A stretch of 32,807 nt of DNA from Bdellovibrionales bacterium (GTDB lineage: Bacteria > Bdellovibrionota > Bdellovibrionia > Bdellovibrionales > UBA840): the NCBI GenBank assembly GCA_037969075.1, contig JBBKWS010000042.1, positions 1 to 32,807 on the forward strand, given 5' to 3'. How positions within the stretch are numbered: the first letter of the stretch is position 1; every line of letters begins with the position of its first letter. Below are positions 11,694-18,886 of this stretch, piece by piece. The notes under the pieces are model-generated. The model saw only the letters and a list, made by a program, of their open reading frames with translations. It had not been told where the DNA came from and did no database searches. Position numbers and translations under genes: made by a program.

Positions 11694-13943
11694 CTATAAA
11701 GACGGCTTTTCTCTGGCAGAGATAAACAACATTGGTATATCGCTTTCTACTAATACACTATCCGTAACACTTCCTAACTTTACAAAACCCTGTCTTTCAA
11801 TCCCACCACGACCGTGAGAAACCATAGCAATTAGGTCACAGTCTAAATCATTTGCGTAATGTAATATAGTTCTGGCCGCTCCAGATCCATCCACAATACA
11901 TTCTATGGCAGTGTTATTATCAAAGTACTTAGCCCTCAACTCATCCAAATACTGTTTTAATGTACTAGCAATATCTGGTCCACCATCAGCCTCTGGAATA
12001 CTTAGTAACGTAACCTTAGATTGGTACACATTGGCCCAAGCCTTCGCGTACGGAAGTACTTGCTCTGCAATCTCTGAACCATCAAGTGGAATCAAAATAT
12101 GATTAAAGCTTGTTGATCTTGATTTCCAATTGTCAGTAGGTCTAAAGATTAGCACTGGAGGCGTAGTCGCATAAATAACTTTATATGCTGTAGATTCAGA
12201 GATAAGTTTGTTTACAGATTTTAAATTACTAGAGGTAAGACAAATCAAATCAAACTTTTGTGTTTCACAAAATGTTGGCAAATCTTTTCTAGCATTCCCA
12301 TCTATAATACGAGGTTCTATTTGCAGATCTTCGCTAGACCAATTTTTAACTAAGTCAGAAACCAATTGTGAAGCTACGTCTTTTTTACCTTTTTCTAAAA
12401 AATGTACTGGCGTGATTTTTGATCCAAACTGCGAAGAAATTTTTATGGCAGAATAAAATGATATATCCGAATTTAAGTTCCCACTAACAGGTACCAATAT
12501 ATTTTTAATTTTATAATTAACATTAAGTTGGTTAGCATTAACATCTAACTGACGAGCATTAATAACGGAGGACAACCTAGAGTCTATAGATTCTGGAGGT
12601 GCCCCTAAACGCTTTTTATAGTAATCAAATACCACATACAAAAGAGGAACCAATATTAAATAACTCCATGCTCCCTCAAAAAATCGTTCTTCAAAAATAA
12701 TGAATGTCGCAAATGTAGCACAAATTGAAGAAAACAAGGTGATTAAAATTCCTATTGTAGACTCAACTGTTTTCTTCTGTCTGTAATATCGTACAAACCT
12801 CTTACAGGCAGACCAACCGGTCATTGATAATAATATAAATACACCCGCCGCATACAGAGCTAAATATGTTTCTTCGTGGGTACCAAAAAATAAAAAGCAC
12901 GCTATAACAACTAATGCCTGAGCCCATGCAGGAAAGGATGGCACATCAAATGTATTTCTCTTACCCCAACGAGCAGGAATATAATGTCTGGCTCTTAAGC
13001 CCAGAGCTAAATTTTGCATACCTTGTGCACTAGCGGCAGCGGCTGACAATAATACAGCTATCCCTATAAGGGTACCTGTATAGGATAACCACGCGGGCAA
13101 AAGAACATCCATAGTTTGTGTAAAGACCGATTTCGTAATATCTGCTGGATTAGACATTTTTAAAATAGCTGGACCAACAATCAGCATAGTAATCACAGTA
13201 GTACCCATAACAATTAGTAAACTGCCATAAGCCTTACGGCTACGTTGTGCCGCGTTTCCTTCATAAGATGCCACAAGATTTGCAAAGATCTCAATCCCCG
13301 TCATCAAAGCAAGAATTCTGGCAAACCCACCCAAGGTAAAATGTAAATGCTCAGAATCAAATGCTGCCATATTAAAATCAGGAAAGTGAAGTCCCTCTTG
13401 CCATATAACTGAGCCAACCATTACCCATAAAAAAAGTAGTATTAATGCAGTTGCTGGGCCAAAAAATTTAGCTGAAATTTTTGGCCCTCGATTTACAGCC
13501 ATAGCGATAAATATGGTAAACCCAACTGCAATTAAACTTCTAGTACTTAGTCCAAACAGCGTTGTATTTAGCATTGGAAGACGATCCACTAAAAAAGTAA
13601 CAAGAGCTGCAATACTAACTAAAAATGTTAACGTATACTCAATAACAGTAATGGCCGCATTTACCTTTACAGCCCAGCCGCCAAACTCCTCTTCACTAAG
13701 CCCACTACCACCACTACCATCCGTGATCCATTTCATTACGTAGCGATACATGGCAGCGACAGTAACCACTGTGAAAACAGCTAGCCAGATAGACACGCCA
13801 AATGTAACCTGGGCAACTCCTGCCCCTACAATTAGTGTTAAAAAAGGACCAAATACATATAGTGGGGAAGTGGCTGGATCACCACCACCTGCAAGCGCAC
13901 CTTGTAATGAGTTTTTTAGTTTATATGATATTGATGCACCCAC
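11694..13943 (-). CDS. APC-superfamily transporter (KUP/KimA-like signature) fused to two universal stress protein domains
   Basis: About 12 TM segments. TM1 GGDPATSPLY, TM6 ALMTGIEIFAN. C-terminal ILVPVSG... and ILIPLDGSEIAEQVLPYA...DLIAMVSHGRGG...LGSVTDSVL. Confidence 0.85.
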   Translation of the reverse strand: MGASISYKLKNSLQGALAGGGDPATSPLYVFGPFLTLIVGAGVAQVTFGVSIWLAVFTVVTVAAMYRYVMKWITDGSGGSGLSEEEFGGWAVKVNAAITVIEYTLTFLVSIAALVTFLVDRLPMLNTTLFGLSTRSLIAVGFTIFIAMAVNRGPKISAKFFGPATALILLFLWVMVGSVIWQEGLHFPDFNMAAFDSEHLHFTLGGFARILALMTGIEIFANLVASYEGNAAQRSRKAYGSLLIVMGTTVITMLIVGPAILKMSNPADITKSVFTQTMDVLLPAWLSYTGTLIGIAVLLSAAAASAQGMQNLALGLRARHYIPARWGKRNTFDVPSFPAWAQALVVIACFLFFGTHEETYLALYAAGVFILLSMTGWSACKRFVRYYRQKKTVESTIGILITLFSSICATFATFIIFEERFFEGAWSYLILVPLLYVVFDYYKKRLGAPPESIDSRLSSVINARQLDVNANQLNVNYKIKNILVPVSGNLNSDISFYSAIKISSQFGSKITPVHFLEKGKKDVASQLVSDLVKNWSSEDLQIEPRIIDGNARKDLPTFCETQKFDLICLTSSNLKSVNKLISESTAYKVIYATTPPVLIFRPTDNWKSRSTSFNHILIPLDGSEIAEQVLPYAKAWANVYQSKVTLLSIPEADGGPDIASTLKQYLDELRAKYFDNNTAIECIVDGSGAARTILHYANDLDCDLIAMVSHGRGGIERQGFVKLGSVTDSVLVESDIPMLFISAREKPSL

Positions 13944-13964: not shown

Positions 13965-14846
13965 TTACTTATTTTGTGTGAAACTGCCACTCTTAATGTG
14001 CAAATCTCTCTGTGGAAATGGAATTTCGACTTTTTCTTCTCTAAAAAGACGGTCTATCTCAAAACGAATATCACTACTAATTTTTTCAATACTCCAAATA
14101 TTAGCGCACCAAAACCTTAAATCAAAATTAAGAGACGAGTCCCCAAAATCCTCAAAGATAGCTTCAGGTGCAGGCTCTGTCATAACCTCTTCTTGGCTTA
14201 ACGCTGCTTTGGCCAACAAATCCCTGACCTTATTAACATCCGAACCGTAAGCTACACCTACGTGGATATGCTGTCTTATCCTTTGTCCCGAAAAACTATC
14301 GCTAACTACTTCTTCAGATATTAACTTTGAATTTGGAATGATGATGGTCACCTCATCACGTGTTTGTATGATCGATGATCTAACGCGTATATCAATAACT
14401 CGCCCGGTGGATGATCCAACTTTAATGATGTCACCTACTTTTACTGGTCTCTCGATAAGGATGATAATGCCAGAAATAAAGTTCTGTGCAATATTTTGCA
14501 AACCAAAACCAATCCCCACCATTAAAACTGCACCAACTGCAGCAAGGGAGTTAATCGAAATGCCCAAATTATCTAGAGCAAACAAAATTCCTATAGCGAT
14601 AATTAAATAACGTGAAAATTTCTCGATCGAGTCTCGAACACCCGAGTCAACACCACGAGCACCCAGCGCCTTGTTAATTGCCTTACCTAAATACTTAGCA
14701 AGATAAATCGTTAAGACAATAACAAGCATGGACATAAAAATACTTGTAACGGAAATCTTCGAACCATTTAGCTGCAACAAAGGTTCGCGTAAAAGGTTCC
14801 AAACTTCTTTTAATTGTTCAGTAATTGTTTTGAATTGATCATTCAT
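13965..14846 (-). CDS. small-conductance mechanosensitive channel, MscS family (MscK C-terminus-like)
   Basis: GIGFGLQNIAQNFISGIIILIERPVKVGD, IPNSKL, VGVAYGSD, FGDSSLNF, IPFPQRDLH. Confidence 0.95.
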   Translation of the reverse strand: MNDQFKTITEQLKEVWNLLREPLLQLNGSKISVTSIFMSMLVIVLTIYLAKYLGKAINKALGARGVDSGVRDSIEKFSRYLIIAIGILFALDNLGISINSLAAVGAVLMVGIGFGLQNIAQNFISGIIILIERPVKVGDIIKVGSSTGRVIDIRVRSSIIQTRDEVTIIIPNSKLISEEVVSDSFSGQRIRQHIHVGVAYGSDVNKVRDLLAKAALSQEEVMTEPAPEAIFEDFGDSSLNFDLRFWCANIWSIEKISSDIRFEIDRLFREEKVEIPFPQRDLHIKSGSFTQNK

Positions 14847-15701
14847 TTACATAACCTCATTTGACGCAGTTGAGTTATTAACTTGAACTGTAGGTTCAAA
14901 AAATGTAGGACGAGTAATTTTATATTGTTTTAAAGCCTCATTTCCGCGAAGCAGAATATCTGTTTGCAAGGCTTTTTCAAATCTGACGTCCATGACATAG
15001 CACTTTACTTTTATTTGCATCGCGGGACGATTGGCAAAATTTAACTCGGTGAGTACAATTGCAACTGGTTTCTTTAAAAAGGCAAATCGGCTCGTAACAG
15101 CAGTTTCGTAGAGTAATTTTTCAGCTTTTGTAATATCAGAATCTAACGACACATGAAAATCAATTTCAATCATCATATCTAAGGCACCAAAGTTTCCTGA
15201 TGATACATATTCAGTGATAAATTTACTATTAGGAATAGTCACTATAGAGTCATCCAAAGTTACTAACTGAACGGCTCTAAGGCCGATAGCTCTAATCTCG
15301 CCATACGTACCCTGAAAAGCAATTCTATCCCCTACTTGAAACGGTCTATCAAATAACAAAATAACTCCAGCAACAACCGAAGCCACCAAATCCTTTAGCG
15401 ATAAACCCAATGCAACGGCTAATGTACCACTTACTGCTAATATAAGAGCCTTGGGAGGGTTAACAATGCCATAAAAAATATATCCCCCGCCCAAGATATA
15501 AATTGCAAAAGATATCGTGGTTATGATCTGTGCGATCAACAACCGACGAGAAGGAATCCGTCTGTTTAGCGCATTACCTATGGAAGATACAAACTTAACA
15601 GCCATACCTAGGCAAACTATACCAAAAATCAGCAGAGCTATCTTTGTAAAGCTAAGTACATCCAATATTCCAGCGGCATTGCTTAAGTCATTTTCATTCA
15701 T
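14847..15701 (-). CDS. second, divergent MscS-family mechanosensitive channel
   Basis: 3 TM. LGLSLKDLVASVVAGVILLFDRPFQVGDRI, GEIRAIGLR, VTIPNSKF. Confidence 0.92.
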   Translation of the reverse strand: MNENDLSNAAGILDVLSFTKIALLIFGIVCLGMAVKFVSSIGNALNRRIPSRRLLIAQIITTISFAIYILGGGYIFYGIVNPPKALILAVSGTLAVALGLSLKDLVASVVAGVILLFDRPFQVGDRIAFQGTYGEIRAIGLRAVQLVTLDDSIVTIPNSKFITEYVSSGNFGALDMMIEIDFHVSLDSDITKAEKLLYETAVTSRFAFLKKPVAIVLTELNFANRPAMQIKVKCYVMDVRFEKALQTDILLRGNEALKQYKITRPTFFEPTVQVNNSTASNEVM

Positions 15702-18700
15702 ATAAAAAATTCTTTCCTATTAAGAAATAGTCTATTACGTATTGAGCTCGTGAGGATATACGAACCCTGTCATTCTCATCTAGCCATACTAAGTTTTTAT
15801 CTTGCGCTTCTTTTAAACACTTTCTTATGGTTGTATCCCCTACATTCGTTATCTGTTTTAATTCTTGCTGTGTTAAGCTGTCGTGCCTTGCAATGGCAGA
15901 AAGTAAAAACAGGGCATCATCACTCATCGAAGCCACTAAGCTAGATCCTATAAATAATGGAACACCAACATGAACCTGCCCATCTGCAGGTGAAGATATT
16001 GCAGAAATCCAATACATTAAAGCTGACCTTGGGTTACCTCTGGACTGTCCCCAAAGTAGTCTAAAAAACTGCCCTTCCGCCTGCTGACCAAAACTGTCAC
16101 CCGCACCATAAGCTTTTATAGAGTCATCAAAAGTACGGCTAAATTTTGTTTGTTGGTGTCTTGCCAAAATCATTTTTTGAATTTCAAAATCTTTCCATTG
16201 TGCTAAGTACATCACTTTTCCATAAAAATGCTCAGCTCCCAAAACTCCTTTTAGATAAGCCCATGAGCGCGAATTGACGCTAAGACACCAATATACATTG
16301 GCTGTTTTTAGAGTAATTACTTCTAAAAATAATTTATACGCCTCAAATCCGCCAATCATGCCTAAGAATAGATTTTGTATATCATCGACAAAAAACACTA
16401 CTGGCTTACCTAAATTACGATCAAACTGTTTAAACTCATCTATTGACGAAATCTTTTCTTCTAGAAGTTCTGACAACCAAGCAAAAAGGGCGTCTGCTGT
16501 AACTACCTTTGATGGTACTCTTTTACTTTTTGTAACACAGTCTTTAGAAACACTAACGCTGATGTGATCAAGAGCTGTTGTTTTGCCCATTCCTCGGTTA
16601 CCTACGATAATCAAAAGATCATCAGTAGATTTTTTATTAACCCAATCAGAGATCGCGTTTATCGCTCGCTCTTCTGTCGAGTTATCTCGGTGAATGTATA
16701 TATCTTTATTGGCAGACAAGTAATAATCAAATGAAGACAAATAATCTTGTGGAGGCGGGCCATAGGTAATCGATTCTTTTTCTGCGCGCTCTAAGCGCTT
16801 CCTTAATACTTCTGATAATAGCCTTTTTACTAAATCAATTCTTACTAAATGAGAAGAGATAAATTTCAATACATCCGAGCTAACCGTGAGCAAAAATAAA
16901 ATTGGCAGTATGAAATTGCTGATCTTTGATTTAAATGCTGGCTGCAACCTATTCCATAAATTAGGAAATCGATATGAAAAAGAAGAACTGATTTCATCCT
17001 TCCATTTCGCCGTCTCAATAAATGTAAAAGCAACATTTACCCAAAAAATTAAATTGGAGAACATCTGGTAAGCTAACGCCCTGCGGACCGTGTCTTCCGT
17101 AATATGCAACAAGATAAATTCAATAAATACCAGTCTTGATATTCTAGTTGCTGATTTTTTTATTCTTACTTTCTGCTGCTTTAAAGTATCTACAGAGTCT
17201 GTAGAAAAAGCTACCTCTAGACATATAGTCAGTAGTAACTTCACCGTGCGATAAATATAGTAGACTTGAAAGTAATACAAGAACATCGCTAATTCTTTTA
17301 GATCAGTATCTTGTATTAAAGATCTAGCAAAGCCAATGCTAATAATCATACCTACAGACGGTACAAATGGATTTAATCTAGCGATCCAAACAGCGAATGT
17401 AGTTCTACGCCTATAATCTAGCATTGATTTTGAGATTAAATCTTTTTTTATTTTATCTAATTTATCTGATGTCCAGCGAAGTATCTTTGTTAAGAAAAAT
17501 GGAATCATTATAAGAATGAATAAAATAAATATTTGCCTAACTAAATCGAGCCAACCATCTAGACCTGAAACAAATTTTGATTTAATTTCTATCCACTTAC
17601 TTAATCCGCCTGCCACAAATCGTAGGGGTACTACGCGAATTTCTCTTAATAAAATTCCTACATTCTTCTCATTAAGACCCCGTGGTCGATCACAGTGAAC
17701 CGCATCACACTTACTTAATAATTGAGCTCGTAATGTTCCAGCATCCTGCAAAAGTTTAAAGTTAGTGACCTTCATATCATCTAGCAGTTTAGTTCTAGCT
17801 TCTATCAATGCCATCTTGCGATTTTCGGCTTTTTTATATTTAACCAAATACTCTTCGTAATTATCTTTATATTTCTCTGATTCTATCTCTAAAATTAAAA
17901 CGCTCGGAAGCTCAACATCAGACTGTAATTCAATATCAGAAAACACTTCTAATAAGTAATCTACTGTCTGCTCCCAAATACCACTCACTTCAGAATAATT
18001 ATAACTGATTTTATTGGCCGATAAATTTACATTATTCTCATACACTGCAGATAATTTAGCCCGCAGCAGCTCTAAGCTATCATCCTTATCTTTTAATTTT
18101 TTTATAAAAGCCAAATGCTCTGTTTCTAAATCAATCATGGTTTTATCTACAGCCGATTTCGCTGTTAAAATTGATTCTTCAACACTGTTGTTTAACTCTG
18201 CTGATTGTTTTTCGGCATCTTGTAACCCTGCCTGCGCCTCTTCTAAAGCTTGCTGGCTGTTTGATAATTGATTTTTTAAGCCGTACTTATCATCTATCTT
18301 ATTTCTTGTTGTTTGATAGTTTGATATAAGATTGTCTCTTTTATCATTTTCTATTTTTAAAAAATCAACCTTCTTAAGGTTAATATTAGCTTGCATGGAT
18401 TTTACTGATTCAATTACGGCAATCACTTCTTTATCATTACAGTTGTCGTAACTTTTAAATTCAGCACTTAGCTCTTCTGCATCAGCAAAAATTCTAAGAC
18501 TAAGTTCTTTAATACGTTTTTTGATTTCATCAGGCTTAGACAGATCAACCTGAAACAAAACTTGCGTTGGTACACGGTAATCACTTCCCTTGCCCATTAG
18601 GGTATCAAGACTTAGCCCCATCTTCTCAAGCGTGCCTTTTCTCTCAGTTAGCTCACTTAATGCATTCTCACAAACAATAGCTTCAATGACCTTGGTTTTT

Positions 18701-18774
18701 TTATCTGCCGCGAGGCAAGTAAGCGAGAAATTGCTAACAGCAAAGAAGGTGATAAGTATATACAGATGTTTCAT
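15694..18774 (-). CDS. large membrane protein: signal peptide, periplasmic coiled coil, ~6 TM, C-terminal P-loop NTPase (STAND/AAA+-like) and winged helix
   Basis: Signal peptide from ATG 18774 (the ORF track starts at 18804). Walker A GNRGMGKTT (16576-16602), Walker B FFVDD (16381-16395), SRGNP motif, HTH-like C-terminus. 8-nt overlap with the first MscS gene. Confidence 0.82.
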   Translation of the reverse strand: MKHLYILITFFAVSNFSLTCLAADKKTKVIEAIVCENALSELTERKGTLEKMGLSLDTLMGKGSDYRVPTQVLFQVDLSKPDEIKKRIKELSLRIFADAEELSAEFKSYDNCNDKEVIAVIESVKSMQANINLKKVDFLKIENDKRDNLISNYQTTRNKIDDKYGLKNQLSNSQQALEEAQAGLQDAEKQSAELNNSVEESILTAKSAVDKTMIDLETEHLAFIKKLKDKDDSLELLRAKLSAVYENNVNLSANKISYNYSEVSGIWEQTVDYLLEVFSDIELQSDVELPSVLILEIESEKYKDNYEEYLVKYKKAENRKMALIEARTKLLDDMKVTNFKLLQDAGTLRAQLLSKCDAVHCDRPRGLNEKNVGILLREIRVVPLRFVAGGLSKWIEIKSKFVSGLDGWLDLVRQIFILFILIMIPFFLTKILRWTSDKLDKIKKDLISKSMLDYRRRTTFAVWIARLNPFVPSVGMIISIGFARSLIQDTDLKELAMFLYYFQVYYIYRTVKLLLTICLEVAFSTDSVDTLKQQKVRIKKSATRISRLVFIEFILLHITEDTVRRALAYQMFSNLIFWVNVAFTFIETAKWKDEISSSFSYRFPNLWNRLQPAFKSKISNFILPILFLLTVSSDVLKFISSHLVRIDLVKRLLSEVLRKRLERAEKESITYGPPPQDYLSSFDYYLSANKDIYIHRDNSTEERAINAISDWVNKKSTDDLLIIVGNRGMGKTTALDHISVSVSKDCVTKSKRVPSKVVTADALFAWLSELLEEKISSIDEFKQFDRNLGKPVVFFVDDIQNLFLGMIGGFEAYKLFLEVITLKTANVYWCLSVNSRSWAYLKGVLGAEHFYGKVMYLAQWKDFEIQKMILARHQQTKFSRTFDDSIKAYGAGDSFGQQAEGQFFRLLWGQSRGNPRSALMYWISAISSPADGQVHVGVPLFIGSSLVASMSDDALFLLSAIARHDSLTQQELKQITNVGDTTIRKCLKEAQDKNLVWLDENDRVRISSRAQYVIDYFLIGKNFLYE

Positions 18775-18886
18775 CGTAAAAGAATAGCACAGTAGACCAT
18801 TCATTCAATCTATGACGTATTGCCAATAGCCATAACGCATATCAGCGCAAGCCACCAAACTTAATGTTAAAAAATCTCTATCCATA

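Follow-up and report, generated by a model that had tools for sequence, protein, structure and literature searches.

We analyzed a window of 32,807 nucleotides (nt), the whole stretch of DNA considered here, from a Bdellovibrionales bacterium (assembly GCA_037969075.1, contig JBBKWS010000042.1, positions 1 to 32,807). In it, a gene that we call P0001 encodes a large protein of 1,026 amino acids (aa) and overlaps the gene for a small MscS-like protein, MscS-A. We document the domain architecture of the large protein, the conservation of its catalytic motifs, the overlap of the two genes, and their strict co-occurrence. Our preferred explanation, to which we give slightly better than an even chance, is that the two proteins form a two-subunit channel complex, in which an ATPase module on the cage of MscS-A modulates gating by its nucleotide state while the exported domain of the same protein serves as input. 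The parts of the pair are as follows, in coordinates of the window.

15694..18774, minus strand: large subunit gene P0001, 1,026 aa (from the list of open reading frames [ORFs] and its translation)
18709..18774, minus strand: signal-peptide-like N-terminus, residues 1-22, with CLA and AD at residues 20-24 on either side of the presumed cleavage site (hydrophobicity scan)
17545..18708, minus strand: exported all-helical domain, residues 23-410, about 390 aa (AlphaFold2 [AF2] model)
17692..17709, minus strand: C356-x4-C361, both cysteines conserved at 90% or more
16840..17544, minus strand: membrane domain, residues 411-645, with six hydrophobic helices
16135..16677, minus strand: AAA+ base, about residues 700-880
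16576-16602, minus strand: Walker A motif GNRGMGKTT, residues 725-733
16381-16395, minus strand: Walker B motif FFVDD, residues 794-798
15970..16134, minus strand: helical lid with FFRLLWGQSRGNPR, about residues 881-935
16027-16038, minus strand: GNPR motif, residues 913-916, inside the lid
15697..15969, minus strand: winged-helix domain and conserved tail, residues 936-1026, with weak MarR_2, GntR, and DeoR matches; the fold alignment to 1w5t_A extends through the winged helix
Residues 1021-1026 of P0001: C-terminal tail KNFLYE
14847..15701, minus strand: MscS-A, the 284-aa MscS-like partner gene (PF00924 at 69.8 bits)

Read from its first ATG, the P0001 ORF spans 15694..18804 (minus strand) and encodes 1,036 aa; this alternative ATG at 18804 adds 10 aa. 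A reading of the DNA made from the sequence alone, referred to here as the original prediction, had named a signal peptide, an exported helical region with a C-x4-C pair, Walker A and Walker B motifs, a GNP motif, and a winged-helix end, and each of these is present in its place. It had also linked the protein to an MscS subunit, and this link is borne out by synteny, gene overlap, strict co-occurrence, and a predicted binding that passes its controls.

We retrieved 63 loci with the family alignment as query (a single-protein query gave 56 pattern matches, none of them confirmed). An MscS-A orthologue with 35-80% identity lies directly downstream of the large gene in 60 of them, and the three loci lacking it (L015, L039, and L070) run into contig ends, with at most 183 bases after the match. 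In the window the genes share 8 nt (15694-15701), and so do those of 47 of the 58 loci where spacing could be measured; the overlap is 11 or 14 nt in another 8, and a gap of 27-117 nt separates the genes in the remaining 3. Among 41 genomes related to that of the window, both genes occur in the same 8, adjacent every time, and neither occurs in the other 33. The MscS-A orthologues of those 8 genomes are 48-83% identical. In the distant loci L034-L074, MscS-A is better conserved than its partner (44-59% versus 22-34% identity).

Judged by its sequence, MscS-A looks like a channel, with three transmembrane (TM) helices, a pore helix, and a beta domain. Residues 11-263 align to solved MscS (3udc_A, E = 1.1e-14) and MscK (7uw5_A, E = 9e-15, the best solved sequence match); the alignment spans TM1-TM3, the beta domain, and the C-terminal domain, and the pore-helix sequence GLSLKDLVASVVAG is kept. 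The Pfam models for the MscS TM and C-terminal regions find no match in MscS-A. The gene that abuts it in the window encodes a canonical 293-aa MscS protein, MscS-B, which is 26% identical to MscS-A. Genes of the MscS-B type directly follow the pair only in L012 and L013, and MscS-B is not a conserved part of the module. Where the original prediction had spoken of MscS subunits in the plural as partners, the conserved partner is the 284-aa MscS-A and not the 293-aa MscS-B. One homologue in a public assembly, P0161 (345 aa), was considered as a natural fusion of the C-terminus of the large protein with the N-terminus of MscS-A. We rejected this candidate as a probable assembly artefact, because its sequence looks frameshifted both where the two parts join and within the pore helix.

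Complex prediction with residues 340-1026 of the large protein and MscS-A gave an ipSAE of 0.66 in all three runs, versus 0.00 for the best of three controls. In benchmarking, 116 of 157 solved complexes reached this mark, as did 2 of 215 mismatched pairs; the complex was predicted from our own per-chain alignments, so these counts hold only roughly. Contacts agreed 100% between runs, with a partner pLDDT of 78. On the large protein, the confident contacts fall in the AAA+ base (residues 805-810 and 839-846), the winged helix (956-960 and 975-977), and the tail (1021-1026). On MscS-A they fall at residues 174-175, 196-213, 237-238, and 248-256 (174-256 overall), a region that, placed by way of the Pfam domains of MscS-B, probably corresponds to the alpha/beta domain from which the cage of MscS is built. 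All confident contacts are cytoplasmic and none involves a TM helix, a result that with this tool is not evidence of absence. The contacts predicted with confidence thus join the AAA+ and winged-helix domains to the cytoplasmic domain of the channel, and do not link TM parts. In the large protein, conservation is higher at the interface than in the remainder of the cytoplasmic module (0.77 versus 0.63, permutation p = 0.005).

The AF2 model of residues 23-660 is all-helical (pLDDT 92.4, pTM 0.81). The exported part, residues 23 to about 410, had been described as helical or coiled-coil; the first description is correct, and the model shows long helical bundles and not a simple coiled coil. The hydrophobic helices that follow lie at residues 411-433, 458-485, 495-522, 547-563, 568-589, and 619-641. 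The earlier count of about six TM helices was fair. An odd number of spans is required, because the N-terminus is exported and the ATPase is cytoplasmic. Helix 547-563 is short and charged and carries a conserved LHxxEDTVRR motif; it is probably interfacial or re-entrant, which would leave five membrane spans. Across 27 loci, among them L065 and L074, the membrane block keeps a length of 269-276 aa. These two loci (L065:5087-7969, Alcanivorax; L074:5360-8200, Oleiphilus) keep a membrane block of 269-271 aa and the AAA+/winged-helix module, and their exported domains have no BLAST similarity to that of P0001. The periplasmic input domain therefore appears to be swappable.

The C-terminal 372 residues (655-1026) were modeled with a pLDDT of 93.2 and a pTM of 0.90, as an AAA+ base, a lid, and a C-terminal winged helix, in the same order as in Orc1/Cdc6. 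The top 12 Foldseek matches of this model are archaeal Orc1/Cdc6 and eukaryotic ORC/Cdc6 proteins (1fnn_A, E = 2.9e-11), with NLRs from rank 13 and RuvB from rank 21. Because of this ranking, we class the NTPase as an initiator-type AAA+ base/lid/winged-helix module that borders on the STAND NTPases. The STAND hallmark that the original prediction had seen is there in its elements (P-loop, GxP motif, and winged helix), but the best fold matches are Orc1/Cdc6/ORC proteins and the NLRs rank lower. No curated Cdc6/ORC model scored above cut-off for P0001 (generic P-loop models matched below theirs: AAA_22, 20.8 bits against a cut-off of 27; Bac_DnaA, 18.1 against 23), and no curated STAND model did so (nSTAND3, 23.4 bits against 27.2; NACHT, 14.7 against 26.7). 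Among 42 aligned family members, an AAA_22-type P-loop match was found in 41, nSTAND3 in 19 (E ≤ 0.01), NACHT in 10, and NB-ARC in 10, the STAND matches being weak. With its conserved Walker A and Walker B motifs, the cytoplasmic NTPase that had been proposed is apparently competent. From their positions relative to the motifs, N834 may be sensor 1, R872 the arginine finger, and R916 sensor 2.

A word search found 82 P0001 homologues, and an exhaustive search of cluster representatives found 2,154 at E ≤ 1e-3, 1,442 at E ≤ 1e-10, and 306 at E ≤ 1e-30. The features of P0001 are not due to chance, since they are kept in a family of 306 representative clusters at the strictest of these thresholds. 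Across the 42 aligned homologues, G725, G728, G730, D797, G913, N914, and P915 are invariant; K731, T733, D798, R916, the four cysteines C35, C112, C356, and C361, and the tail residues K1021-N1022-F1023...E1026 are each conserved at 90% or more. The conserved exported cysteines likely form periplasmic disulfides. In a wider alignment of 114 sequences, G728, G730, and D797 remain invariant and K731 is at least 90% conserved, a pattern that indicates selection on the catalytic motifs. Of 157 homologues with at least 840 aa, 143 begin with a signal-peptide-like hydrophobic stretch, shorter forms of about 860 aa among them; we therefore regard export of the N-terminal domain as a family trait, and the other 14 look like mis-started gene calls. 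The most conserved region is the helical lid (39% identity in distant homologues). The exported domain is the least conserved (16-19%), with 27% in the juxtamembrane stretch 340-410.

The record titles of the loci name Bdellovibrionota, Gallionellaceae, Thiobacillus, Methylococcaceae, Chromatiaceae, Spirochaetes, Thermodesulfobacteriota, Rickettsiaceae, Alcanivorax, and Oleiphilus. The large-subunit genes of two loci labeled Burkholderiales and Gallionellaceae (L026 and L028) are 46-48% identical to P0001, and many Bdellovibrionota copies are 41-45% identical to it; the closeness of these two loci suggests either recent transfer or mis-binned contigs. NCBIfam gave no match for P0001, Pfam gave only sub-threshold P-loop and helix-turn-helix (HTH) matches, and a sequence search of the PDB gave only coiled-coil noise (BST2, E = 0.015).

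Paralogues of the AAA+ module occur in two related genomes, G029 and G019, where trkH is followed by a Na+/H+ exchanger of 1,404 or 1,406 aa fused to an AAA+ module and then by an MscS-like gene.

L088 (G029, contig C53), 5585-11979: paralogous operon
L089 (G019, contig C85), 15-6164: paralogous operon

The C-terminus of the exchanger matches P0001 over residues 709-939 in G029 (E = 3.3e-8) and over residues 722-933 in G019 (E = 1.8e-4). The MscS-like gene after it encodes 241 or 248 aa and abuts the exchanger gene in G029 and overlaps it in G019. These fusions to a cation-proton antiporter (CPA) keep Walker A, and their Walker B reads D-N. Because the paralogues pair the AAA+/winged-helix module and an MscS-type neighbor with a CPA antiporter, the module and neighbor appear as the constant elements and the membrane part as the variable one. 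A cytoplasmic interface therefore fits better than a TM-based one.

In the mechanism that we propose, the predicted docking site of the Orc1/Cdc6-like AAA+ and winged-helix domains is the cage that MscS-A forms in the cytoplasm. The exported helical domain would be the input and would receive a periplasmic signal, ATP binding or hydrolysis would act as the switch, and the output would be opening, closing, or desensitization of the MscS-A pore or of its side portals. A bolder version, which is possible but which we hold only tentatively, places seven AAA+/winged-helix modules around the heptameric MscS cage, where they would open, close, or lock the pore through ATP binding and hydrolysis under an exported sensor. 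If true, it would be the first ATPase-coupled mechanosensitive channel, and one member of a wider, undescribed superfamily whose membrane input (periplasmic bundle or CPA antiporter) is interchangeable.

Several points weigh against the proposed two-subunit channel. Binding is predicted and draws on model confidence, from a pair folded 1:1, and MscS channels are heptameric. Conservation at the MscS-A side of the interface (0.80 versus 0.72 elsewhere, p = 0.08) is not significant. The count of six hydrophobic helices has the wrong parity for a protein whose N-terminus is exported and whose ATPase is cytoplasmic, unless one of the helices does not cross the membrane. Beyond the pair, the neighboring genes are variable and have no functional theme (112 ORFs in 28 loci). 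We infer, rather than observe, that ATP turnover acts on gating. Finally, AAA+ proteins of the Orc1/Cdc6 type are known above all for acting as switches on DNA, and DNA could instead be what the winged helix binds.

The rival closest to the original prediction is a split MscK, in which the exported domain and extra TM helices pack around the 3-TM core of MscS-A and the ATPase is an added switch. This packing can coexist with cytoplasmic docking, and we consider it unlikely, though it is the strongest of the alternatives. The order of parts resembles that of Escherichia coli MscK (signal peptide, helical periplasmic domain, multi-TM block), and two EcMscK chains, 7ux1_A and 7uw5_A, rank second and third in the Foldseek search with the N-terminal model. 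These matches are not significant, however (E = 0.55-0.65, probability 0.10-0.13, TM-score 0.12). The same search of the PDB with the 638-residue model returned nothing at E ≤ 0.001, although it barely probed the TM block. A VIA search with the model returned only generic helical bundles, and MscK was not among the 50 matches listed. Language-model features of residues 23-660 and 395-665 have MscS_TM, MscS_porin, DUF3772, and MscM as their nearest clusters, but the scores of 0.75-0.80 lie below the lead threshold of 0.9, and one shuffled protein in three attains 0.8. PF12794 (MscS_TM) was found in none of the 151 genomes sampled from the phylum of the window, which makes a two-gene substitute conceivable. 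P0001 itself matches neither PF12795 (MscS_porin) nor PF12794 at E ≤ 0.1, and neither is among the 25 of 32 families listed for the 42 members. E. coli MscK, the positive control for PF12795, scores 206.9 bits; Pfam places its MscS_porin domain at residues 50-289 and MscS_TM at 509-826, followed by the MscS core. Profile-profile comparison by hhalign gave the family a probability of 0.9% against E. coli MscK. Against the N-terminal and TM parts of eight diverse MscK proteins, it gave 11% for the whole family, over 31 coiled-coil columns only, and 0.3% for a TM-only profile of 28 sequences against the TM profile of the 8. The eight members were taken from diverse MscK-like loci, enterobacterial homologues (at least 82% identity) being unsuited. 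Of the seven genomes that matched in the search for such loci, G224 contributed nothing to the profile, its locus L082 being set aside. The claim that P0001 supplies MscK-like N-terminal and TM modules in trans therefore finds no Pfam, profile-profile, or significant fold match behind it. Further points against it are that the extra block of MscK would need an even number of spans and that of P0001 an odd one, that the confident contacts of the predicted complex are free of TM helices, and that two genomes (G181 and G184) hold the pair alongside a true MscK-like gene.

The remaining explanations assign the pair other roles, and we regard all three as improbable. In the least improbable, the wiring is reversed: MscS-A senses tension, and the AAA+/winged-helix protein is a membrane-tethered output that binds DNA or another target. 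Such a role would suit an Orc1/Cdc6-like fold with a C-terminal winged helix and weak MarR/GntR/DeoR-type HTH matches, and MscS-A is indeed the more conserved partner. However, residues 956-960, 975-977, and the tail are predicted to touch MscS-A and not to be free, no conserved target gene or regulator stands beside the pair in 28 loci, and MscS-A keeps a pore-helix sequence that aligns to solved MscS and MscK. A little less credible is an abortive-infection or stress suicide module, in which a STAND/AAA+ sensor opens the MscS-A pore upon envelope damage or phage attack. The patchy distribution of the family (8 of the 41 relatives), its occurrence in unrelated phyla, and weak nSTAND3 and PtuA matches speak for such a module. 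On the other side, the PADLOC matches of the large protein are sub-significant (PtuA, E = 3.5e-4; mad8, E = 0.022), so that we take them as P-loop noise, and MscS-A has none. Most of the 112 neighboring ORFs in the 28 loci encode transport, metabolic, or housekeeping functions, and no defense gene recurs among them; one encodes an HNH-endonuclease domain and two a recombinase domain. We give the least credence to an assembly or quality-control factor, an AAA+ protein that inserts or assembles the MscS-A heptamer and stands outside the working channel. AAA+ proteins often act in assembly, and the gene overlap couples the two genes translationally, but an exported domain of 390 aa is hard to explain in a chaperone, and canonical MscS channels assemble unaided.

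In the window, P0001 and MscS-A belong to a tight same-strand cluster. Upstream of P0001 are a pseudouridine synthase gene and an EEP-family gene, and downstream of MscS-A are two further genes.

13965..14846, minus strand: MscS-B, the canonical 293-aa MscS gene that abuts MscS-A (Pfam MS_channel_1st, 2nd, and 3rd; NF008438 at 218 bits over the MscS core)
11694..13943, minus strand: 749-aa APC-type permease with two C-terminal Usp domains (Pfam), the last gene of the cluster

Permease homologues follow the pair in L013, L018, and L029, which are close relatives only. A promoter scan found fewer promoter-like sites than in shuffles, and a terminator scan returned nothing informative. The sequencing runs listed comprised three DNA entries from one study, two of which may stem from the source sample, and no RNA entry. 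A Phenol_MetA_deg gene (PF13557) stands directly after MscS-A in 4 of the 28 loci; no such gene follows the pair in the window.

L018:10836-11639, Phenol_MetA_deg gene
L022:10669-11505, Phenol_MetA_deg gene
L030:10792-11571, Phenol_MetA_deg gene
L033:10805-11524, Phenol_MetA_deg gene

Members of this family are presumably outer-membrane beta-barrels, and the gene could encode an outer-membrane third component in some Bdellovibrionota. In L043, from a gammaproteobacterial metagenome-assembled genome, the pair has a gene for an EF-hand calcium-binding protein on either side (L043:5995-6561 and L043:10873-11613), and a Na+/Ca2+ exchanger gene lies two genes downstream of the pair in L022. These neighbors may hint at a link to divalent cations.

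MscS-type channels are seen as valves that act autonomously and respond to nothing but membrane tension. Because they are regarded as self-sufficient tension sensors, an ATPase partner would surprise specialists, and at the level of titles and the openings of abstracts we found no description of one in the literature. If the two-subunit channel that we propose is real, some bacteria would have their turgor safety valve controlled by metabolism and by the envelope, which would amount to a new principle in turgor and ion homeostasis, and an unnamed branch of bacterial Orc1/Cdc6-like AAA+ proteins would gain a function. The idea is directly testable, because the family is large, the catalytic residues are conserved, and the predicted interface is specific.

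Each part of the system belongs to a known superfamily. Like MscK and MscM (E. coli KefA and YjeP), P0001 has a signal peptide, a helical periplasmic domain, a multi-helix membrane block, and a tie to an MscS-type pore. In contrast to MscK, a single chain that ends in the MscS pore, P0001 ends in an AAA+ module and its pore is encoded by a separate gene; it also lacks detectable similarity to PF12795 and PF12794 and any significant fold match to MscK or MscM. With archaeal Orc1/Cdc6 and eukaryotic ORC/Cdc6 proteins, P0001 shares the AAA+ base, lid, and winged helix, but the identity is 12-16% and no Pfam or NCBIfam family scores above its cut-off. P0001 also differs from those proteins in its membrane anchor, which follows an exported domain, and in its partner, a channel and not replication genes, none of which was found beside the pair in the 28 loci. 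The STAND NTPases (NACHT, NB-ARC, MalT, and nSTAND) have a P-loop, a GxP-type motif in a helical domain, and a winged helix, as P0001 does. Here the differences are that P0001 has no sensor repeats (TPR, WD40, or LRR, by Pfam) after the nucleotide-binding oligomerization domain, that it has no effector domain, and that Cdc6/ORC proteins outrank any STAND protein in its fold list.

ExeA/GspA had been considered as a characterized family to which P0001 might belong, and both have an AAA_22-type P-loop in an inner-membrane-spanning protein with a periplasmic domain. ExeA is built with the cytoplasmic ATPase first, then one TM helix and a periplasmic peptidoglycan-binding domain. Set against this layout, P0001 has the reverse order, with its ATPase C-terminal behind five or six helices, and no match to a peptidoglycan-binding family in Pfam. 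The last comparison is with TrkA/KtrA on TrkH/KtrB and KefF/KTN on KefC, nucleotide-binding cytoplasmic modules that set the activity of an ion pathway. We know of no RCK/KTN-type regulator that partners an MscS channel or carries an exported sensor domain, and the RCK/KTN domains are of the Rossmann type, whereas P0001 is an AAA+ protein. What these regulators share with P0001, in the arrangement predicted here, is that a nucleotide-binding module sits in the cytoplasm beneath a membrane pathway for ions.

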